A DNA stretch of 64,000 bases from Candidatus Sulfopaludibacter sp. SbA3 (GTDB lineage Bacteria; Acidobacteriota; Terriglobia; 20CM-2-55-15): contig CAMBFR010000003.1 in assembly GCA_945865815.1 (NCBI GenBank), positions 1,258-65,257 of the forward strand, read 5' to 3'. Below are positions 10,365 to 29,350 of this stretch, one piece after another. The notes under the pieces were generated by a model. The model did no database searches and had not been told where the DNA came from. It saw only the letters and a program-made list of their open reading frames with translations. Position 1 is the stretch's first letter. Each line of letters starts with the position of its first letter. The position numbers were made by a program, and so were the translations under genes.

Positions 10365-10547
10365 CTATTTTTCCGCTGTTTCGATGACTTCCCGGTCCTT
10401 GTAGTGCCCACAGGCAGGGCAGACACGATGAGGCATTTTCATTTCGTGGCAATTGGGGCATTCGGACAGTGATCGGGTCGTCAAATGATCGTGCGCCCGG
10501 CGGCTGTTTTTGCGCGCCTTCGAATGTCGTCGTTTTGGATTTGGCAT
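10365..10547 (-). CDS. rpmF: 50S ribosomal protein L32
   Basis: MPNPKRRHSKARKNSRRAHD... with the CPNC...CPAC zinc ribbon. It lies immediately upstream of plsX, as in the classic cluster. Confidence 0.9.
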   Translation of the reverse strand: MPNPKRRHSKARKNSRRAHDHLTTRSLSECPNCHEMKMPHRVCPACGHYKDREVIETAEK

Positions 10548-10548
10548 C

Positions 10549-11946: not shown

Positions 11947-12102
11947 ATGATGCATCTGAGCGCCGAAACAGCCCTGGATCTGATCGAAGGCCGCCTGAGT
12001 CCTGACGAGCGCGCCGCGTGGGAAGCGCACGCCCAGGCATGCAAGGACTGCGAGAACGAGATCGAATACTGGAAACGCGCGCTGGGGATGCTGGAATGAA
12101 GA
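11947..12102 (+). CDS. small zf-HC2 (putative anti-sigma-factor zinc finger)-like protein, 51 aa
   Basis: Translates as MMHLSAETALDLIEGRLSPDERAAWEAHAQACKDCENEIEYWKRALGMLE. The pattern H...C..C plus the 'LSPDE' segment matches the zf-HC2 anti-sigma N-terminal motif. There is no obvious Shine-Dalgarno and no adjacent sigma factor. It is below the size cutoff of the ORF track. Confidence 0.3.
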
Positions 12103-12107
12103 CGCGG

Positions 12108-12165
12108 GCATAAAGCCCGCGGCTGCGTAGCCGCAGGCTTTACGCCTGCGTTCAGGCGAAGAGGT
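12108..12165. terminator. cluster of GC-rich hairpins; GCGGGCATAAAGCCCGC motif also found at 18205-18238
   Basis: GCGGGCATAAAGCCCGC stem-loop followed by GCAGGCTTTACGCCTGC stem-loop. It lies between convergent genes. The same hairpin sequence recurs between the two giant genes. Confidence 0.4.
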
Positions 12166-12170: not shown

Positions 12171-13151
12171 CTACCTGGCCGCTTGTGCCGGCCGGGGCGC
12201 CTGCACTACAAGAAAGTCCGTTGTTCCATCGCCGAGCACCGGCTTGGCCCAACCGATGTTCCCGCCGGTAATTCCTGTGGACGCGCTCACGCCGGAAACT
12301 GTCAGTGTGTAGACGCGCTTGTCACCAGCAGGCAGGCTGGGCAGGTTCCACACTGCAGTCTCGGCATTCCTCGCATCCCGCTTCACTCCCTGATAGCCTG
12401 CGCCGGTATTGGCCGCAACCGTGATCTCCGGGGCCAGTGTCAACGAGACAGTGAGGTTTTCAGCCTTAAGCCCCTTGTCCGCTATGCCGACATTACTCAC
12501 GGTGAGCGTGAAGGTGGTGCCTCTGTCGCCGGAAGTTCCGGCGCTGATCTGGCCCGTGATGGGCACGCGCAGCCCGGCCTCGACGGTCATGAATTCCCAG
12601 ATTTGCCGCAATGCCACTTCCGGCAGTCTCGTCCGCGAGTAATTGCCCATTCGGAGACGGGCCTGGTCCCCCATCGCTGTAGTGTGCGTATACACCATCG
12701 ATTTGAACCATTCAAAATCCGCGCCTTCGCCGCCCGCATCTCTACGTGGATTCCCCATCACCGCGCCGTGGCACTGGCCGCAGCCATTGGCAATAAGGAT
12801 CGCCTGCCTGTCGCTGGCATTCGGAGGAATGGGTGTCCGCCAGTTTCCAGGAGCCGCAACCTTCGGCAAGCTGCCCATGTACGCCGCGAGATTGGCAACA
12901 TCCTGATCGCTGAAATTCTTCTCGGGAGTGAATCTTGGCATCACGCCCCATGGCTGACGCACGGCGCGCATGAACTGCGCCGGGGTCAGTTGATGACCGG
13001 CTAGATCGGGACCGAACATGCCCTCGCCGTTGTTGCCGTGGCAATTGCTGCAGGCGTTGTTGGTCGTCCAGAGAGTCTTCCCGGCCGCAACGTCGCCTGC
13101 CGGACCCTGAGCCAGGGGAAGCAAAAGCATCGCAATGAGAATAGCGTTCAT
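12171..13151 (-). CDS. dihaem c-type cytochrome with C-terminal beta-sandwich domain (paralog 1)
   Basis: Signal peptide MNAILIAMLLLPLAQG. Two haem-binding motifs, CSNCH and CGQCH. The C-terminal Thr/Gly-rich region resembles a DUF11-like fold. About 55-60% identical to the ORF at 25600..26619. Confidence 0.8.
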   Translation of the reverse strand: MNAILIAMLLLPLAQGPAGDVAAGKTLWTTNNACSNCHGNNGEGMFGPDLAGHQLTPAQFMRAVRQPWGVMPRFTPEKNFSDQDVANLAAYMGSLPKVAAPGNWRTPIPPNASDRQAILIANGCGQCHGAVMGNPRRDAGGEGADFEWFKSMVYTHTTAMGDQARLRMGNYSRTRLPEVALRQIWEFMTVEAGLRVPITGQISAGTSGDRGTTFTLTVSNVGIADKGLKAENLTVSLTLAPEITVAANTGAGYQGVKRDARNAETAVWNLPSLPAGDKRVYTLTVSGVSASTGITGGNIGWAKPVLGDGTTDFLVVQAPRPAQAAR

Positions 13152-13230
13152 TTTTTTCTCCTTAATGTCGGACTACTTTATGCCAAACCGGTTGGAGCGC
13201 AAAGAAAGTTTACGCGCGGGAAAGATCAAT

Positions 13231-13304
13231 AGCCCCGGGCAGATTCGAACTGCCGACCTCCGGTTTAGGAAACCGCTGCTCTATCCATCTGAGCTACGGG
13301 GCCG
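13231..13304 (-). tRNA. tRNA-Arg (anticodon CCT)
   Basis: Minus-strand sequence GGCCCCGTAGCTCAGATGGATAGAGCAGCGGTTTCCTAAACCGGAGGTCGGCAGTTCGAATCTGCCCGGGGCTA folds as a cloverleaf. It has a 7-bp acceptor stem, D-arm GCTC/GAGC, anticodon loop TTCCTAA and T-arm GGCAG-TTCGAAT-CTGCC. No CCA is encoded. Confidence 0.85.
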
Positions 13305-13314
13305 TGTTGTGATT

Positions 13315-13752
13315 CTAACAAGTTACGATCGGTTTGAGCATAGCTTCGGCGCCCTCCAACCCTTCCTCAGATCGAATCGGCCGCAGTGGAAAAGTGCGGA
13401 TCAGTTGTAGACATTTCGATGAGATCTTTGCCATAACCGCGGTCACGATCGCACTCGCCTCCAGCTCCTTTTGATGCGAATTGAGTACGGACAAACAGAC
13501 CGACGCGTGCTGCCGGACTGAAAAACCCACGACTCGAATAATTCCGTGATGCGGAAGGCCGCGCAGAATCGCGAGTTCGCCGAAATCTTTATCTAATGTC
13601 ACGCGAACTCGACTATCTGCATGAGCGCGGTTGAGAATTTCTTCGTCGCCTGGATCTACTTCCCAATCGCCTGTCCAAATGACGTCGTGGCCGGCGGCCC
13701 GGATTTCAATCTGGGCGGGTCCCCATACACACGTATCCAGCAGAACCTTCAC
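13315..13752 (-). CDS. DUF5615 (PIN-like/Mut7-C) family protein, putative toxin partner of DUF433
   Basis: MKVLLDTCVWGPAQIEI... has the DUF5615 N-terminal pattern. Its start overlaps the stop of the upstream DUF433 gene by 4 nt. Confidence 0.6.
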   Translation of the reverse strand: MKVLLDTCVWGPAQIEIRAAGHDVIWTGDWEVDPGDEEILNRAHADSRVRVTLDKDFGELAILRGLPHHGIIRVVGFSVRQHASVCLSVLNSHQKELEASAIVTAVMAKISSKCLQLIRTFPLRPIRSEEGLEGAEAMLKPIVTC

Positions 13753-14015
13753 AAGGCGGTTTCAACAGCAAAGGGCTCAATTCTCTCGTGACCGACGATC
13801 TTACGAGCGTAAACCAGGCATGCTTGAATATCTTGTCTCTCGAGGAAGGGATACCCGGATAGGATCGTCTCAACCGAATCGCCAGCGGCAAGCATATCCA
13901 GAACATGCTCGACGGCAATGCGCCGCCCGCGAATGATTGGCTTACCGCCGAAAATGGACGGATTCACTGTGATGCGCGATAGCAACTCTATTTCATTCAT
14001 GGTGTGATCCTCCAT
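13749..14015 (-). CDS. DUF433 family protein (putative antitoxin)
   Basis: VNPSIFGGKPIIRGRRIAVEHVLDMLAAG is the canonical DUF433 core. A 15-bp tandem duplication (CATGGTGTGATCCTC x2) spans the start and gives MEDHTMNE. Confidence 0.7.
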   Translation of the reverse strand: MEDHTMNEIELLSRITVNPSIFGGKPIIRGRRIAVEHVLDMLAAGDSVETILSGYPFLERQDIQACLVYARKIVGHERIEPFAVETAL

Positions 14016-14097
14016 GGTGTGATCCTCTCGCTGGTTCGATTATACCTTTCCTTAACTCCTTAACGTTTTACGGCCGTGAGCTTACCATGCTCTTCAG

Positions 14098-17000
14098 CTA
14101 GTTCAGCGAAAGCGTCAGGGGGGCGCCGTCGTCTCCGAAGAAGCGCAGGCTTCCGCTCGGCGACTGGCCCGCCGCTCCGCTGAATACGATGAATTCGGTT
14201 GTGAATCCCCCACCATTGACGATATGCGGGAACAGGAGTTCGGTGGATGATGCAGCCGCTCCTTCGTTCGTGGGAGGAGTGGTTGTCATGAGGTAACTGC
14301 CGAGCTCGTTGTATCGGCTTCGTATTCCGACAACAGAAATGCCGGAGGATGCCGACATTCGGAGCACGCCACGAAACGGATTCGGCAGGTTCGAAAAAAA
14401 GCTTCCGAGAGAATCCACGATCTGCCCGGCCGCAGGCAAAGTGCGGGCGACTGGCGCGGGCAGTCCCGTGGTGGATCCATCCATGTTGGTCAACTCCAGC
14501 GTGACAGTTCCCGCCGCGTTCGATGTATTTGCAATCGCGAAACCGCTTTCGATGTTGCCTGCCCTCCCCGGTATGCCGGACAACTCCACGTACATTCGAA
14601 AAGCAGAACCCTGAATCGCCGGCACACTCGCTTCGGAAAGCGTGATTCCGGCAGGCTTGTACGTGAAGACCGCCATCGCTGACGGCGCCACGCCTCCGCC
14701 CGCAGGGACTACGCGTACGGATCCCTGGGTCAAAACGGCGCCGCCTACACCGGACAATCTGGCCGAATCGCGGCCCGCCACCGAGTAAGGAACGCTGCGG
14801 CTCAGCTGACCGCCCTGGCTGTAAACCTCCACCGCACCCGTCAGCGCGTTATCGGTGGGATTGACCAACAGGATCTGGGTGGTCATGCCGCCACCATCGG
14901 CAAAGTGCGGAATGTACTGCGTGCCACTGGAAGCGGAAAGCGATGTATTCACCACGGGCAATGTGGTCATGAGGAATTCCGCAGGCGTCCGCTCGTTGAA
15001 GAAGGATCGGAGAGCGACTGCTGAAACGGGAACGCTGGAGCTGAAGCTGAATGTGCCCTGAATCGCATTGCCGCCATTGACCGGTTCACTATTCAGGAAG
15101 AACGCTTTCTGCGTGTTCGCGGGAATCGTAAACGTTCCGGTTCGGCCGGGCCCCGCGCTGTTTGTGATTTGAAAGGTGATGACAGCGGCCTGGCTATTGG
15201 GGTTGGCAATGGCAACACCGGTATTCAGCGGCCCATTCACTTCGGCATAAATACGTCCGTTCTGGATCGGGGACGACGCAGGAACGCCGGCTTCCGAGAC
15301 CAGCACATTGTTCTGGCGGAATCCTAGAATCGCAATTCCGGATGCCGTCGTGCTTCCCGAATCGGGCTGAATGCGCGTGTACCCCTGCACCAGTGCGCCG
15401 GCGCCGTCGGTCCTGAGAGAGGACCCTCCGCGATTGGCAACTGTAAAAGGCCGGACCGGAAGGGGCGGATCGGCCTGAAGAAGCACGATCCGCTGGCCCG
15501 CAACACTCGTGGTGATGTCTGTAAAGAACACATGACCCGCATCGCTGAGGTTGAGGTCGAGGAAAGTGCCGGTCAGCCACTGCCGATCCAAACGATCAAA
15601 ACGCCGCGCGACGGCGATATCGCGGCCGTCGGACTTATGCACGACAGCGATAACTTCGCCGGCGCCTGCGAAGTACGCGATATCGCCGCTCGCCGATGCA
15701 ACGAACTTGTTATTGTGGAACCACTGAACCGACGAGCCGAAGCTGAGGCCGCTGCCCCGCGACACGACAGGCCGCCACCCGCTTCCGTCGTAGTAAGCGA
15801 TGTGTTCCGCCGAATTGCCGGCCCATAAGAACGCATAAAAGCGGTTACCGGCTGCTTGAAGACTGGTGAAATTGGCGATTGGTTGGCCGCCCGGCCCCGA
15901 ATCACCAGCCGAACCGATGCGCCGTATCTGGCCGTTCTCCCAAAGAAACGCTGCCACGCCGCCACCGTTCAGTGTCGCGACAAAAGCCACGCGGCCATTT
16001 TCGTCGATGGCAATTTCGTTCAGGTAACTGTATGTTCCGCCGCCTGGTGCTGCAGTTCCCCCGCTCATTACCAGAGTCGGCCGCCCCCCGGCGCCCGGAA
16101 AGAAGAACACTCCGACTGACTGGTCGAAGCTTGCCTGCACCGCCATTTGACCGCGGTCGTTCACCGCATGCGGGCCGTATATCCAGCCCACATTCACACT
16201 CGCGAGACTCGCCATCTGGATCGCTCGGCCCGCAGCCATCACGAGTGTGGCAACGCTGTTGCGCCACAAGTGAATCGACCGGCCGACTGTTGTCTGGGTT
16301 TCGAACAGAATGTTTCCGCTGCGGCTCGAGAAGTGCTGGTCGATTGAGATCAATCTCCCTTCCGATCCCATAACGTCGCCGGGCGAAATCAACGGCTGAA
16401 TGGCATTTCGTGTAATCGCCGCCAGAATACCGCCAGCGGTTTTAAGAACAGGACCGCTGGGATTGATGCCGCGGCCCAGTTCCCTCCAGCGAAGGCCCGT
16501 CGACACGGCGCCGTCGATGGCGCGGCCGGTTTCCACAAGGGGCGCTGATGAGGTTGATACGCCGCTTACAAGCGCGATCCTCCCTGCCGAACTTCCGTGG
16601 CTTCCCCGCACCATGACGTCTCCGGTTGACCGGACCACTGCATTGCTGATGTCCAGCCAGTCATTGGCGCTGCTTCCTCCGTAGGGGGCAACCATGGAAA
16701 TCTGCTCGCCTTCCAACCGGAACACGCCGCTGCCCTGATCGGAGTCTCCCTTGAACACAACGGTGCTGCCGCGAGCATCGAACAGGTTATGGATGCCCCA
16801 GATGTTCGGAGAGTTCGATCCCGCGAGAGCAGGCACGACCTGCCGCCATGAACCGGTCGAATACTTGCCAATCATGTTGAAATCAGGGCCGCCAAAACGG
16901 CCGTACAGGTCGCCGGAATCGGTGCGCATGGGCACATCAAGCCATTGGATCGTCCGGCCCAGAACGACGTCGCCCGTGACGTACACTTTCTGAACTTGTC

Positions 17001-18201
17001 TGGCGTCCCACAAGAAACCACCTTGCCCTCGCGCGTTCCCGGCCATAAAGGTAACAGCGCCCGAGTTCGAAATCAGCGGCGGATTCATCCAGTCGGCAAC
17101 ACCAAGGCCAGGCAAAGTCTGCCCGCCGGTGACGACTGCTTCCGACTGTCCATCGGCGCGCATAACCCACATCTCGTTTGCGCGGCCGGTCCACAAGGTG
17201 ATTGCCAGATCTCCATTGTCGTTCAGAGATTTCGGACCGATATTAATGCAGCACGAACAGCACGCGCCGGATCGCAAAGGCGGGGGCATGACTACAGGGG
17301 AAAACGATGCACCGCGAAACGCCACAACAATGTCGAGGGGACGGTTGATCAGAACAACAACTTCGCCGCGGCCATTCATCGCAATTCCGTCGATGGTTTG
17401 AATGATTGCGTCTGCAACCGCCAGATTGTCGCCGGTAACGGCCAGAGTTCGAAGCGATCCGTTCTGGTAAACCATGGCGGCCTGCGAGCCGTTTGAGAGC
17501 GTCCCGATGAAGGCGAAGCGGTCGGCGCCGCCGTAGCTGATGTCTCCCATGGCGCGAAGCGTGACGGCGCTCGTCCGCACATCGTTGGCAATCGCCTGGC
17601 TCAGGCGATACGTGGGCCGCGTGCGAACCGTCACTGAAGCCTGACCGCCAAAGTGATACCTGGAATCGGCTGCGCCAATCAGTGCCGCAATCGTGGTCTC
17701 GCCCGCCTCAAGACCAGTGACGGTTCCCAGCGAATTCACCGACACGACGGCCGGCAGGCTCGAGAACCAGACAAACGGGACGTCGGCGAGAACGCGCCTG
17801 TCCGCGTCGACTGCTCTTACACTGACTGTTGCCGTCTGGCCAACTTCCAGCTCCACCCGGCTCGGCGTGATTTCAACCGCGAGAGGATAAACTCGGACTT
17901 CGAACCGTCCGGTTACCGAGTCTCCGGTCGCCTGGATTTCGGCGACGCCAGGCATCAGACCCTGCAGTTGGCCACGCTCGTCAACGCGCGCAATCTCGGG
18001 CCGGTTCGATGTCCAGACCGGTCGAAAACCCGAAACCGTAGCTCCTGTCACCGTCCTTGCCGTGGCACGCAACTGAAGGGAACGGGCGCTGATGACGAAA
18101 TCCTGCGGCGCCGTAATCTCAATAGTCGCCACGCTTACCGGCAGGTTTTGAGTCCACGCGGGAATGGATGCCAGAAAGCAGATCGCGGCCAGGAGCAGCA
18201 T
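14098..18201 (-). CDS. giant secreted protein with Big_2 Ig-like domains, NDxGxVAF-type beta-propeller-like repeats and C-terminal ~100-aa tandem modules
   Basis: Signal peptide MLLLAAICFLASIPAWTQ begins at the ATG near 18201. Big_2-like segments (TARTVTGATVSGFRPVWTSNRPEIARVDERGQLQGLMPGVAEIQA). Many repeats of the form I(N/D)xxGxVAFxAxLNGG. Three C-terminal GxAIANxxNxAxxT(F/L)xxTN modules. The N-terminal 56 codons of ORF 14098..18369 are not plausible coding. Confidence 0.7.
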   Translation of the reverse strand: MLLLAAICFLASIPAWTQNLPVSVATIEITAPQDFVISARSLQLRATARTVTGATVSGFRPVWTSNRPEIARVDERGQLQGLMPGVAEIQATGDSVTGRFEVRVYPLAVEITPSRVELEVGQTATVSVRAVDADRRVLADVPFVWFSSLPAVVSVNSLGTVTGLEAGETTIAALIGAADSRYHFGGQASVTVRTRPTYRLSQAIANDVRTSAVTLRAMGDISYGGADRFAFIGTLSNGSQAAMVYQNGSLRTLAVTGDNLAVADAIIQTIDGIAMNGRGEVVVLINRPLDIVVAFRGASFSPVVMPPPLRSGACCSCCINIGPKSLNDNGDLAITLWTGRANEMWVMRADGQSEAVVTGGQTLPGLGVADWMNPPLISNSGAVTFMAGNARGQGGFLWDARQVQKVYVTGDVVLGRTIQWLDVPMRTDSGDLYGRFGGPDFNMIGKYSTGSWRQVVPALAGSNSPNIWGIHNLFDARGSTVVFKGDSDQGSGVFRLEGEQISMVAPYGGSSANDWLDISNAVVRSTGDVMVRGSHGSSAGRIALVSGVSTSSAPLVETGRAIDGAVSTGLRWRELGRGINPSGPVLKTAGGILAAITRNAIQPLISPGDVMGSEGRLISIDQHFSSRSGNILFETQTTVGRSIHLWRNSVATLVMAAGRAIQMASLASVNVGWIYGPHAVNDRGQMAVQASFDQSVGVFFFPGAGGRPTLVMSGGTAAPGGGTYSYLNEIAIDENGRVAFVATLNGGGVAAFLWENGQIRRIGSAGDSGPGGQPIANFTSLQAAGNRFYAFLWAGNSAEHIAYYDGSGWRPVVSRGSGLSFGSSVQWFHNNKFVASASGDIAYFAGAGEVIAVVHKSDGRDIAVARRFDRLDRQWLTGTFLDLNLSDAGHVFFTDITTSVAGQRIVLLQADPPLPVRPFTVANRGGSSLRTDGAGALVQGYTRIQPDSGSTTASGIAILGFRQNNVLVSEAGVPASSPIQNGRIYAEVNGPLNTGVAIANPNSQAAVITFQITNSAGPGRTGTFTIPANTQKAFFLNSEPVNGGNAIQGTFSFSSSVPVSAVALRSFFNERTPAEFLMTTLPVVNTSLSASSGTQYIPHFADGGGMTTQILLVNPTDNALTGAVEVYSQGGQLSRSVPYSVAGRDSARLSGVGGAVLTQGSVRVVPAGGGVAPSAMAVFTYKPAGITLSEASVPAIQGSAFRMYVELSGIPGRAGNIESGFAIANTSNAAGTVTLELTNMDGSTTGLPAPVARTLPAAGQIVDSLGSFFSNLPNPFRGVLRMSASSGISVVGIRSRYNELGSYLMTTTPPTNEGAAASSTELLFPHIVNGGGFTTEFIVFSGAAGQSPSGSLRFFGDDGAPLTLSLN

Positions 18202-18238
18202 GCAGCCGCGGGCATAAAGCCCGCGGCTACCGCCTGCG

Positions 18239-20998
18239 TTAGAAGAGTGGTTCTGCCACATAAACCACAGTCCGGTCTTTAATATCTCTTCCCCTGAAAT
18301 AAACTCTCCGGTCGTCGCCCAGGACAATATGGGTGACTCCCATGATGTAGTCTCCGTCTTCGGTGGCAACCGTGCTCGTTTGAATCATGCCCACCCTGTC
18401 GGCGCCACGAAAAACCAGTCCGTTCATGCCGCCCCTGAAGCCTGCCGCAAACGCGATGTCGCCTTGCCGATTTACAGCGAAATTGCCGATGAAGTTGATC
18501 TCCGCGCCGTTTGGACCTGTGTCGGCATTGGTCACAAGCGGAATCCATTCTCGATCCCGATATTCCGCAAGAACGTTTTGGCCGCCACTGAGGTTAAGAA
18601 TGGCGTAGAAGCGGCCATTCGCTGCTTCCAGCTGGCTGACCCGCGTGATGGTCTGGTTGTTCACCCGGGTGACGTCCATCAAAGCAGCCGCTATCCAGTT
18701 CCCGTTTTCATGGAGGAACAAGCCCGAGGGTCCGCCATTGACAGCCAGATACGTCATGACGCGGCCGAGCGAATCCACAGCCTGAGGCCACCCCAAATTC
18801 CGTACGACGCCGCCGGCCGGGCTCGTTGTCTGCCAGAGCGGGTTCCCCACGCTGTAAGCCAGCACGGTGGTACGGCCGTTGGCCAGGAGAAGCAAACGCT
18901 GATGCTGCCGGTCCGTGTCGGCTCTCACCAGCGCGAACCCATTTTCGCTGACCGAGAGCAGCGTGGCGCTCGACAGCAGGACTCCATCGCTCGCGGATGT
19001 GTTGTGCGCCATAACCACTTCGGCCCGGCCACCGGCTAGACGATAGATATTTCCCGCGGAACTGAAATAGAGTCCCTGGCTGCTCTGGTACGAGATCCCG
19101 TCGATTCCGTCGAAGATGGATCTATCCGGGAGGCGGTCTCCATTAAGCAATCGTGGAATCGGACCTCGCGGATTCAATGAGAAAAGATTGGCGCGCCCTC
19201 CGCCCAGGAGCACGTAAGGCTCTCCGGCGTCACTGCCGGAAGCCAGGCCGTTGATGGTTATGTTCGCCGTAACGTTGACCTGGCTACCCGCCTGAAAAAG
19301 CACCATTGGGTCCGGCGCCGCCCGAACCACGACGAACTGATTGTCCACGGTTGCGACATCCGCATACACCCGGCCGTCCGCGGTGATGGCGACAGCGTTT
19401 ATGCTTCGAATCGGCTCGCCATTGGGAGCGATCCCTCCTTCGGCCAGGATCAGCGACGGATTGCCGCTCTCCCATCGATACAGCGCGGATCCCGCTCCAG
19501 TGTCGGCGACAAAAGCGACACTGCCGTTGGAAGCAATTGCGAGGCGGTTCCCCCACCATCTCAGTGCTACGTTTTCAGTGCGCACGGCGGTTTTGCGCGA
19601 CAGATACATTTGTCCGCCGTCCACCTCCAGGACGAACGCGAGGGTTCCATCGGCCGCATTGGCGAGATCGTAAATACTACGGACTGTCGAACCGGCGAAA
19701 GAATCGCCGGTTCCAATGACCTTCACCGGACTCTGCGCGCGCTCCCTTCGATAGATGGCGTTACCTGTGCCGCTCCACGCCCTGAAATACACCGTCCCGG
19801 CGCGATCGATTCCAATCTCGTTGACACCGAGCACGCCTTCCAGTCCGGGCAGAGGCTCGCCTTCCCACCACGCCAATTCCAACCCCGATTCCGAGCGCAC
19901 AAATAATCCATTCCGCCCAAGAGGAATATTGGCCCATTGGAATTGCGCCCCGAAGGCGATATCACCGTTGTCGTTCAGGTCGAAACCGCGGCCGCAGCAC
20001 AAGCGCAGATTTTCGAAGCCGCCTGCGGATTCGCCCTCGAGTAAGACGAAGGATTTTCCCTGCCGCGATGCGAGCACCAAAGCGATCCCAGGCTGGCCGT
20101 CAATTCCGGCCAGCGTCAGAACGTCGCCGCGGCTGTTGATCACCGGCGGCTCCATGCCCATAATGGTGCCGCCGGGCAGAGGCCCGAGCGTTCCGGCGCC
20201 GACCAGGAGGTCGAAGACACCCCTGTCATACAGCATCAAGCCACTGGTCATGCCATTCAACGACGCATTAAATGCAACCTGGCCGGCATCATTGACTGCG
20301 ATTTTGTGACTGCCAGTCGGCGGGCGCAACGAAGCCGATGGCAGCACCTCGTCAGATGAAAGCAACCGGGTGAGCCGGTACGACGCCGGCGCCCGCACAT
20401 CAATCGCCGCGCTGCCGCTGACCTGCGGCGCAAACTGGCCCTGACCCGCGGGATAGTTGATCGATGCGACCACCGTAAACCTGCCCACGGCACTGGCGGA
20501 CAACACGCCGGTGTTGTCGATTCGCGCAGCCTGGGTCTGAAACCCTCCGGCCCCGATGACCTGCCATAGAAAGGTCACGCCCGGAATCGGTTGCAGATCC
20601 ACGTTCAGCGCGGAGGCCCGAAACTGAAACTGATCTCCCACGATGACGACCTTTGATGAAGGGGACACATCAATTCTCAGCGGCAGGACCTGAATGCGGA
20701 CACTCGCCGACAGGCTGGTCAGCGAAGCGGCAATTTCAGTGACCCCCAGGCCGCGAGCCGTTACCAGGCCGTTCGCGTCCACCGTGGCAATGTTTGTGTT
20801 GTTGGATCGCCAGCTGAACTGGTCGCTTGCACGCAGCGAGCCGTCCGAATTGCGGGCGGAAGCGAGAACAAGAGTCTGTTGCCCGGAAATGAGCCGTGGC
20901 TGCTCGATGAAAAGATGGATGCGGCTCACACGAGTCTGTGCGAACCCGGACGCCGTAGCGGCGAGGTAGAGGATTGCCAGGAAACGGGAGACTCTCAA
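18239..20998 (-). CDS. giant secreted Big_2 / beta-propeller-repeat protein (second copy of the family)
   Basis: A TTG start with GGAGGA about 10 nt upstream gives the signal peptide (M)RVSRFLAILYLAATASGFAQT. The TTG overlaps the TGA of the DUF1501 gene. Big_2 segments and repeats LNDNGDIAFGAQF, VNDAGQVAFNASLNG, VNRQGDIAFAAGF. The first 156 codons of ORF 18239..21466 are Arg-rich out-of-frame overlap and not real. Confidence 0.7.
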   Translation of the reverse strand: MRVSRFLAILYLAATASGFAQTRVSRIHLFIEQPRLISGQQTLVLASARNSDGSLRASDQFSWRSNNTNIATVDANGLVTARGLGVTEIAASLTSLSASVRIQVLPLRIDVSPSSKVVIVGDQFQFRASALNVDLQPIPGVTFLWQVIGAGGFQTQAARIDNTGVLSASAVGRFTVVASINYPAGQGQFAPQVSGSAAIDVRAPASYRLTRLLSSDEVLPSASLRPPTGSHKIAVNDAGQVAFNASLNGMTSGLMLYDRGVFDLLVGAGTLGPLPGGTIMGMEPPVINSRGDVLTLAGIDGQPGIALVLASRQGKSFVLLEGESAGGFENLRLCCGRGFDLNDNGDIAFGAQFQWANIPLGRNGLFVRSESGLELAWWEGEPLPGLEGVLGVNEIGIDRAGTVYFRAWSGTGNAIYRRERAQSPVKVIGTGDSFAGSTVRSIYDLANAADGTLAFVLEVDGGQMYLSRKTAVRTENVALRWWGNRLAIASNGSVAFVADTGAGSALYRWESGNPSLILAEGGIAPNGEPIRSINAVAITADGRVYADVATVDNQFVVVRAAPDPMVLFQAGSQVNVTANITINGLASGSDAGEPYVLLGGGRANLFSLNPRGPIPRLLNGDRLPDRSIFDGIDGISYQSSQGLYFSSAGNIYRLAGGRAEVVMAHNTSASDGVLLSSATLLSVSENGFALVRADTDRQHQRLLLLANGRTTVLAYSVGNPLWQTTSPAGGVVRNLGWPQAVDSLGRVMTYLAVNGGPSGLFLHENGNWIAAALMDVTRVNNQTITRVSQLEAANGRFYAILNLSGGQNVLAEYRDREWIPLVTNADTGPNGAEINFIGNFAVNRQGDIAFAAGFRGGMNGLVFRGADRVGMIQTSTVATEDGDYIMGVTHIVLGDDRRVYFRGRDIKDRTVVYVAEPLF

Positions 20999-22311
20999 CC
21001 GAAAACTTCCTCCACTGCCGTATACACTCCGTACTCGGCATATGGAACGTACTCGAACTTTCGGCCCGACGGAGTATCGGTAATGCTCTTGGTCCAGTTG
21101 ATCCCAAGGGCGGAATAGATCGTTGCCGCCAGATCCTCCATAACGATCGGGCGCTGAGCGCTCCACCCGGGAGTAGTAACCCTGTCGCCAATTCTGTCTG
21201 TCGCACCGATGGCCCGGCCGCCCCGGACGCCGCCACCGAGCATCGCCACGCTCATCGCATACTTGTGGTGGTCGCGGCCGCCTCGTGAATTCAAGTCTCC
21301 AGGCGTGCGCCCGAATTCTCCCATCATCACGATAAGCGTCTGGGCGAAATCGCCGCTTGCCTTGAGATCTTCCACCAGCGCGCCAACAGCCCGGTCGAGC
21401 TCGTTTGTGAGTTGATAAATACTGGGGGTGTAGCGGCGATCGAACATGTTCTGGTGCGTGTCCCATCCCTGTTGAGTGACGTTCACGAACACCGTCCCGC
21501 TTTTTGCCTGGATCGCATTGCGTGCAACGATAACCGAGCGCGCGAAATTCGTGTCTCCGTACCGCCCGGTGTCGTCACTCGAGAACCGGAATACATTCGA
21601 AATTCCCTGCTGATACATCAGCTGCCGGGCAGACTTGTAGAAGTCGGAGTGGTCGGCCATCCGCCTGTCGAAGGGAGCGGCGCGCAATGGTCCCTCCAGA
21701 TCTTCAAGGAGCTTGAACTTCTCTTCGAACCGCGTCTGGCTCTCGTTGCCATAGAAACTGTGTTCGAGGGTTGCAAGGCCGCCGGCGTTGGTCGGCGCCG
21801 TCATCGGCTGAAGCTTTCCGCCCAGAAACGTCGCCCCCTGCCCCGCAAACGAGTTGAGGGTGAAGAACGGGGGCAGCCGGTCATCGCTGCTCTTCTCGAG
21901 TCCAACGACTGCTCCGATATGAGGAGTCTCCGCGACGAATGCAGGGTTGGAGGGATGCGCGGTCTGCATGTAGAACTGGCCGCGCGTGTGCTCGGCTTCC
22001 CAACTGGAAACGGAACGAAGAACGGCGAGGTCGTTCGTGATTTTGGACAATTGCGGAAACAGCGTATTTGAAAGAACGATGCCGCCCGGATATTGCCGGA
22101 GATCGGCGTCGAAGGGATTCCACGGGCCGTCCTTGGGATCAAACGTATCCAGGTGGCTCGGGGCTCCGGAGAGATTTATGAAAATGCAGGCTCGGGCCGT
22201 GCCGCGAACATTTGCGGATGGCGAGACGCTCACCTGTGCTTCTCCCGTTCGAGCCAGAGACATGAACGCAGTCCAGCTCGCCGCCTGCTTCAGCCAGTCG
22301 CGCCGTGTCAT
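20995..22311 (-). CDS. DUF1501 family protein (sulfatase-like fold, Tat signal)
   Basis: MTRRDWLKQAASWTAFMSLA twin-arginine leader. The DUF1501 hallmark is ...MLGGGVRGGRAIGATDRIGD... The ATG at 22311 was verified. Confidence 0.75.
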   Translation of the reverse strand: MTRRDWLKQAASWTAFMSLARTGEAQVSVSPSANVRGTARACIFINLSGAPSHLDTFDPKDGPWNPFDADLRQYPGGIVLSNTLFPQLSKITNDLAVLRSVSSWEAEHTRGQFYMQTAHPSNPAFVAETPHIGAVVGLEKSSDDRLPPFFTLNSFAGQGATFLGGKLQPMTAPTNAGGLATLEHSFYGNESQTRFEEKFKLLEDLEGPLRAAPFDRRMADHSDFYKSARQLMYQQGISNVFRFSSDDTGRYGDTNFARSVIVARNAIQAKSGTVFVNVTQQGWDTHQNMFDRRYTPSIYQLTNELDRAVGALVEDLKASGDFAQTLIVMMGEFGRTPGDLNSRGGRDHHKYAMSVAMLGGGVRGGRAIGATDRIGDRVTTPGWSAQRPIVMEDLAATIYSALGINWTKSITDTPSGRKFEYVPYAEYGVYTAVEEVFG

Positions 22312-22345
22312 CTTGTAACAGCTCGGACAGCCCTTCACGTGACTC

Positions 22346-23524
22346 CTAGTAGTTGAATATGAAATCCAGCTTGTTGAGCAGCACCCATTGGAGATTGGAC
22401 AGCCACCTTTCGCGGTCATCAATCTTCGCTGCGTTGACCGTGGCCATCTCATGCTCGGCGGGATCGCGCCCAAGCGTGGCCAGGAACATCTGGCGCACCA
22501 GCTCGTCGTCGCTCGCCGTTGAACGCAACAGCGTGCTGACGCGGGTATTCATGCCGCGGTTGTCGAAAGTCCTGTTGTTGATCGCCGAATCATTCATGAA
22601 ATAGAGGACCTGAATGACGGTTGTCGTCGAATTTCGGGGAAGCTGCCACCAATCGCCGCGTCCGAAGTTGGTCAGGAAGTTCCGGACGTTGAAATCCTGG
22701 GAAGGCTCGGTCGGATCGGGAAGCTGCGTCGCGTAGAGCACGGGCTTGTCGAATCCCTGGACGCTCATCGGCGCTTCGGTCCGGGTGGCCGTTATGACGG
22801 CGTCGTAAATTTCCTCAGCCAGGAGACGCCGCGGAAAGTGCTTGGCAAAATAAGGAGCAAATTCCGGCTTCCATTCACCCGGATACCGGCTCGACAACTG
22901 GTAGGCGTTCGACTCCACCATCAAACGGATCATCCGGCGGACGCTGTAGTTCGACCGGATGAACTCATCGGCCAACGCCTCGATCAACTCCGGATGCGTC
23001 GGGTGCAAACCCCACGGCGCAGCAGGCGGCTGCTTTGGATTGATTCTGCCAAGATCCCAGGCATCCGGCGGGTCTACGATGCCAACCGTGAAGAAATGCG
23101 CCCACAGGTAATTGACAGCGGCCCTCGCAAACTGACGATCTGAAACCAGCATCCGGGCAAATTCTTCGCGCCAGTTGCCGCCGCGGGGTTTCTCACCGGT
23201 CAGCATGAATACAGGCTCGTATGGAGCACCCACTCTCGACGGACGCGGCCCGGGATTATTGGAATTCACATAGCCGTGGTAGCTGCCGACCGGCCGATCC
23301 GAAATAATCACGCGGTTCTGCTGATTGAAGGCGTCCACCGGAATGACGTTCATGTTCATGCGCGAAAAAAACGCCGACATGCGCATGAATTCGGAGCGCC
23401 GGCGCACCGCCATGTACGTATTGATCTCCTCCAGGTGACGCCGCCCGTCGTGACAGGAAATGCATTCCGTCTTGATACCGAGAAATCTTGTGGTGACGCG
23501 GTCGGTGAGCGTGTCCCAGGTGTC
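22346..23524 (-). CDS. DUF1553 (PSD1) portion of a DUF1549-DUF1553 protein; downstream half of a gene split by an in-frame TAG
   Basis: Ends ...WVLLNKLDFIFNY, the typical DUF1553 C-terminus. Between the TAG at 23525-23527 and the first Met at 23413 it reads DTWDTLTDRVTTRFLGIKTECISCHDGRRHLEEINTY in the same frame. That segment carries the conserved C..CHD motif that links PSCyt2 to PSD1. Confidence 0.55.
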   Translation of the reverse strand, partial: DTWDTLTDRVTTRFLGIKTECISCHDGRRHLEEINTYMAVRRRSEFMRMSAFFSRMNMNVIPVDAFNQQNRVIISDRPVGSYHGYVNSNNPGPRPSRVGAPYEPVFMLTGEKPRGGNWREEFARMLVSDRQFARAAVNYLWAHFFTVGIVDPPDAWDLGRINPKQPPAAPWGLHPTHPELIEALADEFIRSNYSVRRMIRLMVESNAYQLSSRYPGEWKPEFAPYFAKHFPRRLLAEEIYDAVITATRTEAPMSVQGFDKPVLYATQLPDPTEPSQDFNVRNFLTNFGRGDWWQLPRNSTTTVIQVLYFMNDSAINNRTFDNRGMNTRVSTLLRSTASDDELVRQMFLATLGRDPAEHEMATVNAAKIDDRERWLSNLQWVLLNKLDFIFNY

Positions 23525-24157
23525 CTAAATCGGATCACCCTGCTGGGACGCGCGAATCAGGAAATTCGGTGGACCCGATGTGTGGGAGTCTCCGGTTGCC
23601 GTGATCAACTCGGTGGCGATCTCCTGATAAGAACGATCCCTTGCGACGAAATCACGAAGGTAGGAATGGAAGAGATTGCGTCCCGGAATCCCAATCAGGT
23701 TGTAGTACCGTCCCGTAACCTCGAAAAAGTTCGCGTAGTAGAACGTCCAGTTATCGATGAATGCTTCAGACCCGACCAGGGAATCGATAAGGAAGGAACG
23801 CTTGTCGGCGCGCCCATCGGCAAGAAACGCCTCCACCTGCTCGGGCTGGGGAATCCGCCCTGTCACGTCCAGGGAAAGGCGCCTTAGAAATTCCGCATCC
23901 GTCGTGAGAGGCGCCGGCTGAACGCCTGCGGCCGCCATTTTGCCGAAAATGAAATCGTCGATGAAATTGTTGCTGCCCTGGGCGAACCGGATATCGCCCG
24001 GCTCGCCAAGCGAGGAAACCAGCACCTCCGGCGCCGCGTCTTTCTGAGACCGCGCGAACTCCGGCGGAAACTGACTGTGGGGATATACGGGGCAATGATC
24101 GCTTCCTGCCCAGACCGACATCGCGCCGAGAAGAAGCGCTACGGAAACTCGATGCAT
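23525..24157 (-). CDS. DUF1549 (PSCyt2) portion of the same DUF1549-DUF1553 gene; terminated by an in-frame TAG at 23525-23527
   Basis: Signal peptide MHRVSVALLLGAMSVWA. DUF1549 motifs DDFIFGKMAAAGVQPAP...EFLRRLSLDVTGRIPQPEQVEAFLAD...KR..LIDSLVGSEAFIDNWTFYYANFF. Confidence 0.55.
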   Translation of the reverse strand: MHRVSVALLLGAMSVWAGSDHCPVYPHSQFPPEFARSQKDAAPEVLVSSLGEPGDIRFAQGSNNFIDDFIFGKMAAAGVQPAPLTTDAEFLRRLSLDVTGRIPQPEQVEAFLADGRADKRSFLIDSLVGSEAFIDNWTFYYANFFEVTGRYYNLIGIPGRNLFHSYLRDFVARDRSYQEIATELITATGDSHTSGPPNFLIRASQQGDPI

Positions 24158-24207
24158 CCAGCGAAACTCCAGGCCGCGATGTTAGTCACGGGGCTAAATC
24201 GAGTCAA

Positions 24208-24238
24208 TTGAATCCTGTACCGGGTAGTGGCGTATAAT
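24208..24238 (+). promoter_or_regulatory. candidate sigma70 promoter for the cytochrome c-propeller gene
   Basis: TTGAAT (24208-24213), a 19-nt spacer, then a perfect TATAAT (24233-24238). AGGAGG sits 8 nt upstream of the ATG at 24282. The spacer is on the long side. Confidence 0.3.
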
Positions 24239-24281
24239 CGCGCAAATTTCCATACAGTCTTCAAGCAGGAGGGTAAGGCGC

Positions 24282-25499
24282 ATGCGAAGCAAAGCGTTCC
24301 CAGTTCTGACATCAGCGATGTTTGCCGGTCTCCTTGTTGTTGTGCCGGCAGAAGCACAGCGGGGCGGCACGGTTCAGTTGCCGGCAGGAGCAGGCCGGGA
24401 AATTCTCCAGAGTAAGTGCACCCAGTGCCACGGACTAAACCTGATCACCAACTCGGCCGGCTTCAGCAGAGACGTCTGGGGAGCCCTGATCCCCACGATG
24501 GTGGCGATGCCCGCCGATGAAGCCGGAGTGCTCAGCGGATACCTGGCAGCGAACTTCCCCGCAAAGCCCGGGACTCGTCCCTCGCTGGTTTCGGGTGAGA
24601 CGTCGATCAAGATCAAGGAGTGGATGGTCCCGACCCTTGGCCAGCGGTCGCGCGACCCCATCGAGGCGCCGGACGGCTCGATCTGGTGGACCGGTATGTG
24701 GGCAAGCCTGGCGGGAAGGCTCGATCCCAAGACGGGACAGATGAAAGAGTACCCTCTGCCGCCCAGCGCAAAACCGCACACCATATTTCCCGACAAAGAT
24801 GGAACCATCTGGTACACAGGCAACAGCAACGCCACGATCGGCAAGCTGGATCCCAGTACCGGGAAGACCACAGAGTATCCGACCAAGGCGCGAGATCCTC
24901 ATTCCGCCGTTATCCACCAGAACGGCAGAATCTATTTCACCGCCCAGGGCGCGCGCATGATCGGGCGTCTCAGTCCCGAGACCGGCGAAATCACCGAGGT
25001 CCCGACAGAGGCGAATCCTTACGGAATCCAGGCGGCTCCCGACGGCACGCTCTGGGTTGCCTACAACGGGACAAACAAAATCGGCGCCGTTAATCCGGAT
25101 ACGCTGAGTATCCGTTACTACGAGGTGCCGGACACGGCGTCGCGTATTCGCCGCCTCGGACTTACCAGTGACGGCATGGTCTGGTATGGAAACAACACGC
25201 GAGGCCGAATTGGCAGGCTCAACCCGAAGACGGGCGAGGTCCGGGAGTGGCTGTCGCCGAGCGGCCCGACATCCGATCCTTATGCCTTCGTCGTCGTCAA
25301 GGACATCATCTGGTACAACGAATCAGGAATGAGACCGGACACGCTCGTGCGCTTTGACCCGAAGACGGAACGATTCCAAAGCTGGCCGATTCCCTCCGGA
25401 TTCGGCATCATCCGGAATTTCGGCGTGACCCGGGAAGGTAACCTGATTATCCACCAGAGCAGCTCGAACCGCGTGGGCCTGGTTGAAATCCAAAACTAG
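24282..25499 (+). CDS. cytochrome c domain fused to a six-bladed Vgb-like (streptogramin-lyase-type) beta-propeller
   Basis: Signal peptide, then CTQCH haem motif with ...DVWGALIPTM. Six repeats follow of the type DGSIWWTG..GRLDPKTGQMKEYPLP, DGTIWYTG..GKLDPSTGKTTEYP, NGRIYFTA..GRLSPETGEITEVP and so on. Confidence 0.75.
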   Translation: MRSKAFPVLTSAMFAGLLVVVPAEAQRGGTVQLPAGAGREILQSKCTQCHGLNLITNSAGFSRDVWGALIPTMVAMPADEAGVLSGYLAANFPAKPGTRPSLVSGETSIKIKEWMVPTLGQRSRDPIEAPDGSIWWTGMWASLAGRLDPKTGQMKEYPLPPSAKPHTIFPDKDGTIWYTGNSNATIGKLDPSTGKTTEYPTKARDPHSAVIHQNGRIYFTAQGARMIGRLSPETGEITEVPTEANPYGIQAAPDGTLWVAYNGTNKIGAVNPDTLSIRYYEVPDTASRIRRLGLTSDGMVWYGNNTRGRIGRLNPKTGEVREWLSPSGPTSDPYAFVVVKDIIWYNESGMRPDTLVRFDPKTERFQSWPIPSGFGIIRNFGVTREGNLIIHQSSSNRVGLVEIQN

Positions 25500-25519
25500 A
25501 CCGAACTGCCGAAAACAAA

Positions 25520-25591
25520 GCGGGCGCGGCCGGAGCCGCGCCCGCCCATGCCCTGCTTAGGAGATTTCAGGGGGACTTGGAAGTCTCCCCC
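25520..25591. terminator. two GC-rich hairpins between convergent genes (putative bidirectional terminators)
   Basis: GCGGGCGCGG-ccggag-CCGCGCCCGC (25520-25545), preceded by an A/T-rich stretch for the minus-strand gene. A second hairpin GGGGGACTTGGAAGTCTCCCCC lies at 25570-25591. U-tracts are weak. Confidence 0.4.
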
Positions 25592-25599
25592 GAATCACT

Positions 25600-26619
25600 C
25601 TATTGCGCTGAGGCGCGCGCGACGTTTATGGGAATGACATCCATACCGCCATCGCCGAGCCGCGGCTTCCCCCAGTTCACGTAACCGCGAGCAATTCCCG
25701 CTGCCGCTGTTGCACCGGTAATGGTCAACGTGTAGGTCCGGCGTTCCCCGGCAGCCAGAAACGGTATCTCCCAGGCTGCGGCTTCGGTGTTCGTATAGTT
25801 ATCGCGGCGGATACCGGTATAGCCGGCTCCCGTCGTTGCCGTCACCGTGACGCCTGCCTGTTGCGCCGCGGCGGCGCCTCCCGGCAACGGAAGAAACATG
25901 GTCAGGTTCTCGGCCGCAAGACCTTTACCGCGCGCGCCGCCGTTGGAAAGCGTGATCGTATAGGTGACCGTGTTGCCCGAAGCAGGCGGGGCGGTGATAT
26001 TCGCGGAGATATTGGCGCGCAGTCCCTGATCCACGCCAAAGAACTGCCAGATCTCGTGCAGCGCCTCTTCACTCAATCTCTGCCGGGAATAGTTCCCCAT
26101 GCGAAGATGTGCACGGTCGCGATTCGCCTCACCGGTGGTATGCGCGTACACCTCCTCTTTGAACCATTCGAAGTCCGCGCCCAGGCCGCCCGCGGTTCTG
26201 CGCGGATTCGCCATGAGCTGGCCATGGCATTGTCCGCACCCGTACGAAATCATCAGCCGCTGCCTTTCGGTGGCATTGGCCGGAACGTTCGTTAACCACT
26301 GGCCGGGCTCGGGAACCTTCGCCAGGGTCGCCAGGTAAGCCGCAGCCTGACGAACTTCCTGATCGGTAATGTTCTTATCGGCCGCAAAGGCGGGCATGAC
26401 TCCCCATGGCTGCCGGACAGCCCGCATGAACTGCGCGGGAGTCAAAGTATGGCCGGCGAGATCCGGACCTAGTCCACCCTCTCCCCTCACGCCGTGACAC
26501 AGCCTGCAATCGTGGTTGAAGCTTTCCCAGATAGCTTTCCCCGCCTGAACGTCTCCGCCGCCACCGGCAGGACCCTGGGCCAAAGGAATCAAAAGTAGCG
26601 CAATGAAAATGGGGTTCAT
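25600..26619 (-). CDS. dihaem c-type cytochrome with C-terminal beta-sandwich domain (paralog 2)
   Basis: MNPIFIALLLIPLAQGPAG signal. CRLCH and CGQCH haem motifs. Collinear with and about 55-60% identical to the ORF at 12171..13151. Confidence 0.8.
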   Translation of the reverse strand: MNPIFIALLLIPLAQGPAGGGGDVQAGKAIWESFNHDCRLCHGVRGEGGLGPDLAGHTLTPAQFMRAVRQPWGVMPAFAADKNITDQEVRQAAAYLATLAKVPEPGQWLTNVPANATERQRLMISYGCGQCHGQLMANPRRTAGGLGADFEWFKEEVYAHTTGEANRDRAHLRMGNYSRQRLSEEALHEIWQFFGVDQGLRANISANITAPPASGNTVTYTITLSNGGARGKGLAAENLTMFLPLPGGAAAAQQAGVTVTATTGAGYTGIRRDNYTNTEAAAWEIPFLAAGERRTYTLTITGATAAAGIARGYVNWGKPRLGDGGMDVIPINVARASAQ

Positions 26620-26706
26620 ACTCGGCCTCCTGCGCGTAACTCTACGCCACAACTTTCGGAGCGCAAAAAACTTTCTGGGAGGTAATTGACGAGTCGGCAG
26701 GCTGTG

Positions 26707-27022
26707 GGCGCGGGGCTTTAGCGCTGTGCAAAGTTCCAGAAAATTTCTATTTGATCCCTGGCACCGGGCTAAAAGCCCCGCGCCTGCGCAAAAACTCCCC
26801 TCCTGGATTAGGAGGGGTGCCGTTCGCGCGTTTTTTAGCGAACGGCGGGGTGGTGTCCAATCAATTAATGAGCGCTACGCGAGCATCCATAAGGTGGCTT
26901 CGCGTCATTCCGTACCACCCCGTCTGCGCCAATAAGGAACGGGACCATTCCCCTGGTGGCGCAGCCACCCCTCCTAACACAGGCGGGGAATAGGAGTGGC
27001 ACGGGGCTGAAGCCCCGCGCCT
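26707..27022. repeat. copy B of the GC-rich nested-palindrome intergenic repeat family (~315 bp)
   Basis: Modules: GGCGCGGGGCTTT...AAAGCCCCGCGCC, CTCCCCTCCTGGATTAGGAGGGGTG, CCGTTCGCGCGTTTTTTAGCGAACGG, GGGGTGGTGT...GTACCACCCCG, CCACCCCTCCTAACACAGGCGGGG and GGCACGGGGCTGAAGCCCCGCGCC. Same orientation as copy D. Confidence 0.65.
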
Positions 27023-27040
27023 ACGGGTCGACTGCAGGGT

Positions 27041-27814: not shown

Positions 27815-27852
27815 CTTCCCTCCAATGCCCTCCGATGCCCTCCGGCAAACGT

Positions 27853-28248: not shown

Positions 28249-28257
28249 GCTTCCTCC

Positions 28258-29349: not shown

Positions 29350-29350
29350 T

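Follow-up and report, generated by a model that had tools for sequence, protein, structure and literature searches.

DUF1501, DUF1549 and DUF1553 are among the largest families without a known function in the Planctomycetes, Verrucomicrobia and Acidobacteriota. DUF1501 and the domains PSCyt1, PSCyt2 (DUF1549) and PSD1 (DUF1553) make up a conserved module of proteins with export signals in Planctomycetes, Verrucomicrobia and Lentisphaerae, and the function of the module is unknown (Kamneva et al. 2012, PMC3542564). The same gene pairs have been seen in Verrucomicrobia (He et al. 2017, PMC5615132). In one arrangement from the Planctomycetes-Verrucomicrobia-Chlamydiae (PVC) bacteria, a four-gene cluster encodes a DUF1501 protein, a PPC-domain protein, a PSCyt1-Big_2-PSCyt2-PSD1 protein and a PSCyt1-WD40 protein (PMC3542564). 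Here, we describe a related operon in a 64,000-nucleotide stretch of DNA (the window) from Candidatus Sulfopaludibacter sp. SbA3, a member of the Acidobacteriota. The region in which it lies is a mosaic with one coherent functional unit, a compact operon on the minus strand (14098-24157). We think that this is probably a conserved acidobacterial operon that acts as an envelope complex, is broken here by an amber codon, and sits amid unrelated neighbors. Its features, from the 5' end of the operon, are as follows.

24179-24207, minus strand: possible sigma-70-like promoter, TTGACT-17-TAACAT, weak evidence
22346-24157, minus strand: operon gene 1, PSCyt2 (DUF1549)-PSD1 (DUF1553), 603 codons, 81.7 and 113 bits
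23525-23527, minus strand: in-frame TAG within the PSCyt2-PSD1 gene, CAG to TAG at Gln211
20995-22338, minus strand: operon gene 2, DUF1501, 447 amino acids from GTG 22338, Pfam DUF1501 220 bits
18239-20998, minus strand: operon gene 3, giant 2, 919 amino acids, Big_2 and a weak NxxGxxAF repeat
18205-18227: GC-rich hairpin GCCGCGGGC-ATAAA-GCCCGCGGC, between the giant-2 stop and the giant-1 ATG
14098-18201, minus strand: operon gene 4, giant 1, 1,367 amino acids, Big_2 in two copies

Domains were assigned from a listing of open reading frames (ORFs), a tRNA search, and Pfam and NCBIfam scans of the window proteins. An earlier reading of the window, made from its letters without database searches (the sequence-only reading), had listed the same genes and domains, and the scans found all of them.

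The operon resembles the module of Kamneva et al. in gene content. The window DUF1501 gene stands beside a PSCyt2 (PF07583)-PSD1 (PF07587) gene with both domains in one protein, DUF1501 carries a twin-arginine signal and its partner a signal peptide, PSCyt2 contains a CxxCH motif, and the genes are multicopy and of unknown function. The window PSCyt protein is, however, a short form of about 600 amino acids that has neither PSCyt1 nor a fused carbohydrate-binding, Big_2 or WD40 domain. Moreover, PSCyt2-PSD1 is the first gene here, a separate Big_2 double-propeller protein of about 930 amino acids is encoded directly downstream of DUF1501 and is translationally coupled to it, and the host belongs to the Acidobacteriota (Bryobacterales/Solibacteraceae) rather than to the PVC group. 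The PVC four-gene cluster likewise combines the same modules (DUF1501, PSCyt2-PSD1, Big_2 and a beta-propeller) in three to four genes, but in the window, Big_2 and the propeller occupy a polypeptide of their own instead of being fused to cytochrome domains, the propeller is of the NxxGxxAF/DUF7453 type instead of WD40, and both a PPC-domain protein and PSCyt1 are missing. Indeed, a Pfam scan found no PSCyt1 domain in the window PSCyt2-PSD1 protein, whereas a paralogous long-form PSCyt protein in locus L024 does carry one. We conclude that the window operon is the acidobacterial short form, with three to four genes, of the known DUF1501-PSCyt/PSD module. In the literature searched, no paper mentioned both DUF1501 and DUF1553, no functional study of DUF1501 was found, and the acidobacterial form was not described; for that literature, the statement of the sequence-only reading that the function of the module is undescribed holds.

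The operon is conserved across Acidobacteriota. Searching with the joined PSCyt2-PSD1 sequence returned more than 1,300 homologs of about 600 amino acids, and those with a source name were Acidobacteriota. A 30-sequence alignment of PSCyt2-PSD1 proteins served as the anchor for 80 loci from species-representative genomes, 79 of which were labeled Acidobacteriota, with those classified further belonging to Bryobacterales, Solibacteraceae or Terriglobia, and the loci were compared by tBLASTn and by all-against-all clustering of ORFs. The order PSCyt2-PSD1 (about 605 amino acids), DUF1501 (about 448 amino acids) and a giant-2-like gene (about 930 amino acids) was found in essentially every locus long enough to hold it; the three families were counted in 76, 63 and 62 of the 80 loci, respectively, and the misses were contig ends or antisense shadow ORFs. 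The stop codon of DUF1501 overlaps the next start in 39 of 66 loci, as NTGA in 32 of them, and a gap of at most 30 nucleotides separates the two in 24 more. The association also held in the reverse direction, as three of three distant giant-2 homologs (27 to 34% identity) lay directly 3' of DUF1501 and PSCyt2-PSD1, and all five full-length giant-2 relatives found in JGI metagenomes, in a scan anchored on a six-sequence giant-2 alignment, were directly downstream of the pair. A further locus, L092, reached through its PSCyt2-PSD1 gene, has the same three-gene order. The genes around the operon are otherwise unconserved and several genomes hold more than one copy, and thus the operon is a self-contained, multicopy cassette. 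The physical and translational linkage of DUF1501 and DUF1549/DUF1553 to proteins with immunoglobulin-like (Ig-like) domains, as proposed by the sequence-only reading, is therefore strongly conserved in both directions. The same reading treated everything from 12171 to 26652 as one block; in the synteny comparison, the operon alone recurs, and the cytochromes, the toxin-antitoxin pair and the tRNA do not travel with it.

The first gene of the operon carries a nonsense codon that had been overlooked. What appear as separate PSCyt2 and PSD1 ORFs are one reading frame split by the in-frame TAG, so that of the DUF1549-DUF1553 gene described earlier, both domains are present but the intact gene is not. 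The residue at the TAG position is Gln in 119 of 119 homologs, where it forms part of the motif QQGDPIQDTWD, and the TAG precedes the invariant CxxCH by 21 codons. An intact ortholog, P0001, is 603 amino acids long and 92% identical. Residues C232, C235 and H236 of the CxxCH motif are invariant in 30 of 30 PSCyt2-PSD1 sequences, as is His241, and the protein is predicted to bind heme c through this motif. It is mostly alpha-helical and has a Sec signal peptide, judged from the hydrophobic N terminus in the sequence; neither sequence profiles nor Foldseek found a relative of solved structure. An identical TAG is present in three contigs, L003, L004 and L005 (one ENA metagenome assembly and two separate run assemblies), which match the window at 99.995 to 100% identity over 11 to 21 kb. 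A sequencing or assembly error was rejected because these three further public contigs share the codon. The closest relative compared, L001, is a 53,970-nucleotide metagenome contig (ENA ERZ27280297 k141_568516) and is the 92% relative. Against L001, the ratio of nonsynonymous to synonymous divergence (dN/dS) of PSCyt2-PSD1 is 0.08, similar to that of neighboring genes, and the gene has no second lesion, and for these reasons the mutation appears young. We conclude that the change of Gln211 to TAG is a recent nonsense mutation. The next in-frame ATG lies 3' of the heme motif and is without a signal peptide, and thus reinitiation would not rescue the protein. Since the heme partner is truncated, the module is probably inactive or impaired in this strain.

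Disruption of PSCyt2-PSD1 was also seen in other genomes. In-frame stops or a frameshift were found in 5 of the 80 loci (L023, L030, L037, L048 and L049, with match regions that start at locus position 10001, or 215 in L030). The lesions are W352*, G78*, W214* with R408*, one frameshift, and E179*, and their positions differ; some may be assembly errors instead of true pseudogenes. L037 has additionally lost DUF1501 and the giant gene. In L091 (327-3288), what remains of the PSCyt2-PSD1 gene in the same operon is a 283-amino-acid, PSD1-only ORF that adjoins a group II intron reverse transcriptase (RVT_1/GIIM), with transposases downstream, and this is an independent disruption of operon gene 1. 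Because the other disrupted homologs are broken at different sites, we rejected the idea of a conserved, programmed stop. The scattered disruptions fit ordinary birth-and-death turnover of a multicopy family and not programmed recoding.

The second gene encodes a DUF1501 protein (PF07394, 220.4 bits against a cutoff of 27) whose start is more likely GTG 22338, 7 nucleotides past the PSD1 stop. All 30 aligned DUF1501 sequences share the twin arginine, and export by the twin-arginine translocation (Tat) pathway is predicted from this signal. Seven invariant residues could bind metal, namely, S52, D55, D284, H286, E332, D347 and H348. Moreover, the DUF1501 family profile matches LtaS and sulfatases with E values of 1e-4 to 1e-2. 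Like sulfatases (PF00884) and LtaS, the window DUF1501 is exported, and it aligns with them at a segment made of a helix, a beta-strand and metal ligands. The similarity is limited to that segment of about 40 to 120 residues, however, and DUF1501 further differs in its Tat export and in lacking a formylglycine motif. Pfam gave no PF00884 match in the window protein, C/S-x-P-x-R is absent, and the segment at the formylglycine site, placed by eye, reads G-A-P-S-H with an invariant Gly. Together, the profile match and the candidate metal ligands fit membership of DUF1501 in the alkaline phosphatase/sulfatase superfamily. The TGA of DUF1501 is overlapped by the TTG start of giant 2 as TTGA, just as had been read from the sequence, and the L001 ortholog is arranged alike.

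The third gene product, giant 2, is secreted; it has two Ig-like domains of the Big_2 type and, as a predicted fold, beta-propellers in tandem that are made of NxxGxxAF/DUF7453 repeats. In this it is like the DUF7453/TIGR05002 "choice-of-anchor tandem repeat NxxGxxAF" proteins, as giant 2 and its orthologs carry NxxGxxAF repeats that are predicted to fold into beta-propellers. Unlike them, window giant 2 falls below both curated thresholds (39.6 bits against a TIGR05002 cutoff of 50, and no PF24251 match), and its subfamily is fixed at about 920 amino acids with two N-terminal Big_2 domains and an obligate operon partner. P0242, an 82%-identical ortholog, scores 57.6 bits for PF24251 against a cutoff of 26.2. 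Neither a description of DUF7453 nor its operon link was found in the literature searched. Giant 1, encoded by the fourth gene, is a paralog of giant 2 (25% identity over about 900 amino acids, E value of 1e-32), and Pfam finds Big_2 in both, in line with the earlier description of two tandem large proteins with Ig-like domains. Support for a start at ATG 18201 comes from the hairpin, which takes up the space behind the giant-2 stop. The L001 ortholog of giant 1 is 81% identical, and among related loci, only some 13 include a second giant gene. The C-terminal extension of giant 1, about 450 amino acids long (window 14098-15450, residues 920 to 1367, approximately), has no Pfam or NCBIfam match. 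It holds the motif (I/F)PH(F/I)xxGGG(M/F)TT twice, each time followed by a beta-rich stretch. In other loci, the second giants, which are about 900 to 950 amino acids long, seem to lack this extension.

How the three core proteins might work together is suggested by the export signals on all of them, by the operon structure with its conserved translational coupling, and by the predicted folds. The proteins would form a complex, in the periplasm or the cell envelope, in which DUF1501 may be a metal-dependent catalytic subunit and PSCyt2-PSD1 a heme-c-binding partner. The Ig/propeller protein would be a stoichiometric subunit, with its translation coupled to that of DUF1501 through the TTGA overlap, and would either capture substrate or act as a scaffold. 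A more specific version is possible, though doubtful: the three-gene unit could be a previously unrecognized exported enzyme complex of a heme-c PSCyt2-PSD1, a Tat-exported DUF1501 and a coupled Big_2 double-propeller protein, in which a catalytic subunit of the alkaline phosphatase superfamily needs both a heme partner and a propeller capture subunit. Its target might be esterified polymers, either sulfated or phosphorylated, and the sulfatase, BNR_4 and TonB-dependent receptor genes near the operon in some loci are a weak hint in this direction.

Several points weigh against the reading of the locus as an envelope complex broken by an amber codon. Operon structure, export signals and folds are the whole basis for the proposed complex and for what each subunit would do in it. 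The likeness of DUF1501 to solved sulfatases and LtaS is one segment with an E value of 1e-4, and with G-A-P-S-H in place of the sulfatase C/S-x-P-x-R, the chemistry may differ. Moreover, near-cognate tRNA-Gln may decode the amber codon some of the time and so put back the original residue, and the genes downstream of the TAG show no decay, such that loss of function is no more than probable.

The genes that flank the operon vary between loci. In one subclade (L015, L018, L029 and L084), a canonical sulfatase (PF00884) and a BNR_4 gene lie upstream of the operon. TonB-dependent receptor-like genes were found in 12 loci and a HAD hydrolase directly upstream of the operon in 14, and loci L013, L016, L066 and L082 were also listed for neighbors of the sulfatase, BNR_4, TonB or HAD type. 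Such neighbors hint weakly at polymer or ester breakdown; the hint is limited to clades, or it may reflect shared ancestry of the loci.

In the window, the remainder of the block consists of the following features.

12171-13151, minus strand: diheme cytochrome c-DUF11 gene cyt1, Cytochrome_CBB3 67.8 bits, second CxxCH, near-threshold DUF11
13230-13303, minus strand: tRNA-Arg(CCT), from the tRNA search and Rfam
13315-13752, minus strand: DUF5615 gene, 52.6 bits
13749-14015, minus strand: DUF433 gene, 84.8 bits
24282-25499, plus strand: cytochrome c-Vgb-lyase-like beta-propeller fusion, CxxCH and then a Vgb_lyase-type propeller, 169 bits
25518-25547: terminator of cyt2, 13-bp GC-rich hairpin with a T-run
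25600-26619 (or 26652), minus strand: diheme cytochrome c-DUF11 gene cyt2, Cytochrome_CBB3 69.4 bits, second CxxCH, near-threshold DUF11

Beyond the block lie fabF, fabD, plsX, yceD and a TPR gene on the left and, on the right, an unknown gene of 281 amino acids (u281), DUF6152, a metallo-beta-lactamase, an amidohydrolase and a Tct transporter; both flanks are ordinary chromosome. The tRNA-Arg(CCT) and the DUF433/DUF5615 pair that had been read from the sequence are both present, as is the divergently transcribed cytochrome c-Vgb-like propeller gene. The DUF433 and DUF5615 genes overlap by 4 nucleotides at 13749-13752, and they are predicted to be of the toxin-antitoxin type on the basis of their domains. 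An Rfam scan of the intergenic regions for regulatory RNA matched only the tRNA. The possible promoter sits 22 nucleotides 5' of the PSCyt2-PSD1 ATG, and a promoter scan of the region gave a number of matches not above chance. The hairpin ahead of giant 1 is a 23-nucleotide GC-rich palindrome in a 37-nucleotide gap, and a second, near-identical copy that scores terminator-like lies at 12101-12123, 3' of cyt1. Both copies are directly 3' of minus-strand genes (cyt1 and giant 2) and are the sole close copies in the 64 kb, where three matches were found against 0.34 expected by chance, the third with three mismatches. The hairpin may be a small repetitive extragenic palindromic (REP)-like element or a terminator or attenuator.

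The diheme cytochromes have associations of their own. The products of cyt1 and cyt2, both encoded on the minus strand, are 55% identical (E value of 2e-122), at the edge of the 55 to 60% that the sequence-only reading had estimated by eye. The bracketing of the operon by these paralogs is real, but 55% identity points to an old duplication instead of a repeat left by an insertion. A search for the diheme family gave 916 matches. The cytochromes recur with a u281/u282-like gene directly upstream and usually with DUF6152 nearby (window 26619-30199; L001 1-4438; L086 2189-8589; L102-L105), and the two window copies of the u281/u282-like gene are paralogs with 26% identity. In some loci, a metallo-beta-lactamase or amidohydrolase gene is near the cytochromes, and L086 also encodes, at a short distance, a sulfite-oxidase-like molybdoenzyme that has a cytochrome c of its own. 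L087 (ENA ERZ27280310 k141_580038), from an assembly that also includes a contig matching the window, encodes at 10001-10999 a third diheme paralog, 65% identical to cyt1, beside tRNA-Met and a toxin-antitoxin/restriction-type cluster (PIN/PhdYeFM, HsdM_N and Gp49/HTH_37). Thus, the diheme cytochromes look like members of a separate conserved neighborhood, the function of which is undescribed.

Comparison with L001 indicates which parts of the region vary. The proteins shared by the two are 81 to 94% identical, with synonymous divergence (dS) of 0.49 to 0.73 across the shared genes. L001 is collinear with the window over 30136-25601, from the right flank through the cyt2 stop, and again over 24213-14100, from 56 nucleotides upstream of PSCyt2-PSD1 to the giant-1 stop. 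In place of the cytochrome-propeller gene, L001 has 5.5 kb with FrsA-like, AbiEii and DUF4011 genes, and in place of DUF433/DUF5615, it has HigB/HTH_3 and a Zeta-toxin gene after giant 1. Because these breakpoints coincide with the operon edges, variation is confined to the toxin-antitoxin pair and the cytochrome-propeller gene. A cyt1 ortholog with 93.9% identity lies on a contig of 53,970 nucleotides, the same size as L001, and this equality of size, the sole basis for the point, suggests that the order cyt2, operon, cyt1 is common to both. We conclude that the operon is stable at its site and that the variable parts are small toxin-antitoxin or defense cassettes at its edges.

Two alternatives would give the neighbors a larger part. 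The operon and the three nearby c-type cytochromes could be one periplasmic redox chain, much as the sequence-only reading had made the cytochromes part of a periplasmic redox module: PSCyt2 has an invariant CxxCH, three exported c-type cytochromes are encoded within 2 kb of the operon ends, and PVC four-gene clusters include a PSCyt1-WD40 protein (PMC3542564) that is loosely like the window cytochrome-propeller fusion. Within 10 kb of the operon, however, none of the 80 genome loci has a homolog of cyt1, cyt2, DUF433 or DUF5615, and the propeller fusion finds a single weak and partial match, in L076. No homolog of any of the three cytochromes was found in 12 further loci (L090 to L101), and CxxCH occurs in only 17 of 799 ORFs neighboring the operon, several of which are other PSCyt proteins with their own DUF1501. 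In the window itself, cyt2 ends at a strong terminator and the adjoining gene is on the opposite strand, and the 92% relative lacks the cytochrome-propeller gene. With the diheme cytochromes recurring instead beside u281/u282-like and DUF6152 genes, we consider a shared redox chain very unlikely. It is also unlikely that the whole 12.5-kb stretch is an accessory island integrated beside tRNA-Arg between the cytochrome paralogs, as had been proposed from the adjacency of the tRNA and the toxin-antitoxin pair. No integrase or recombinase was found among all assigned ORFs of 12171-26652, no direct repeat of the tRNA 3' end or other att-like repeat was found at the far border, and the GC content is flat, at 0.575 to 0.616 within the block versus 0.55 to 0.62 outside. 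The tRNA and the pair do adjoin the block, but the 3' end of the tRNA faces cyt1, 78 nucleotides downstream, and the block is on the 5' side. An island would account for the junction cassettes that differ between the window and L001, and in the more distant L086, the orthologs of cyt1 (79%) and cyt2 (85%) are in tandem 265 bp apart with only a u281 remnant between them and no operon. The order in L086 is cyt1 and then cyt2, however, and here it is cyt2, block, cyt1; since the cytochrome order is reversed, one arrangement does not follow from the other by a simple insertion. Moreover, in the 92% relative, the one close relative compared, the operon occupies this same position at a dS of about 0.55, and the 94%-identical cyt1 also appears to be kept. 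We conclude that the cytochromes, the cytochrome-propeller gene, the toxin-antitoxin pair and tRNA-Arg are a lineage-specific juxtaposition and not components of the module.

Two other alternatives concern the operon genes themselves. The TAG might be no defect but a codon that is read through or recoded, such that full-length PSCyt2-PSD1 is made, perhaps at a regulated low level. In amber suppression, near-cognate tRNA-Gln inserts Gln at UAG, and Gln is the residue lost here; the strong purifying selection on the gene against L001, its freedom from a second lesion, and the TAG allele in all three matching public contigs would agree with continued production. Those contigs are so nearly identical, however, that they may all sample one clone. 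Genome-wide recoding of TAG was rejected, as TAG is the normal stop of FabF, ETF-QO, NadA, SMC and others and thus terminates many conserved genes in the window, and the tRNA search found no suppressor tRNA there. With the gene broken elsewhere in other genomes, by stops, by a frameshift and by truncation beside an intron reverse transcriptase, we judge read-through quite unlikely and favor a nonsense mutation. The large Ig/propeller proteins, in turn, might be independent surface adhesins that share the DUF1501 transcript and have no functional link to it. The giants do evolve faster than their neighbors (dN/dS against L001 of 0.15 to 0.20 versus 0.06 to 0.09), as exposed surface proteins often do, and Big_2 and propeller folds are generic binding modules. 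The association of DUF1501 with the giants is nevertheless near universal in both directions, even among sequences only 25% identical. In 63 of 66 loci, the next start overlaps the DUF1501 stop or lies close to it, and PVC bacteria fuse Big_2 and WD40 to PSCyt proteins of the same module (PMC3542564). Independent adhesins are unlikely for these reasons, and a subunit of an envelope complex remains the better account of the Ig/propeller protein.

The operon does not reveal a new mechanism; what it offers is a clearly delimited, minimal version of a module that has long been a puzzle, and with it a nonsense allele of natural origin. The form that the module takes in Bryobacterales and Solibacteraceae is minimal and fixed, with three genes, and its third subunit, which has Ig-like domains and a double propeller, is obligatory and translationally coupled. 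That form is a clean, testable unit, from which the misleading association with neighboring cytochromes has been removed. The amber mutation provides a natural and probably loss-of-function allele of the first operon gene in an environmental population. If the proposed complex is real, its separate propeller subunit would make it the simplest version of the PVC DUF1501/PSCyt systems and a possible entry point to the function of these very large families.

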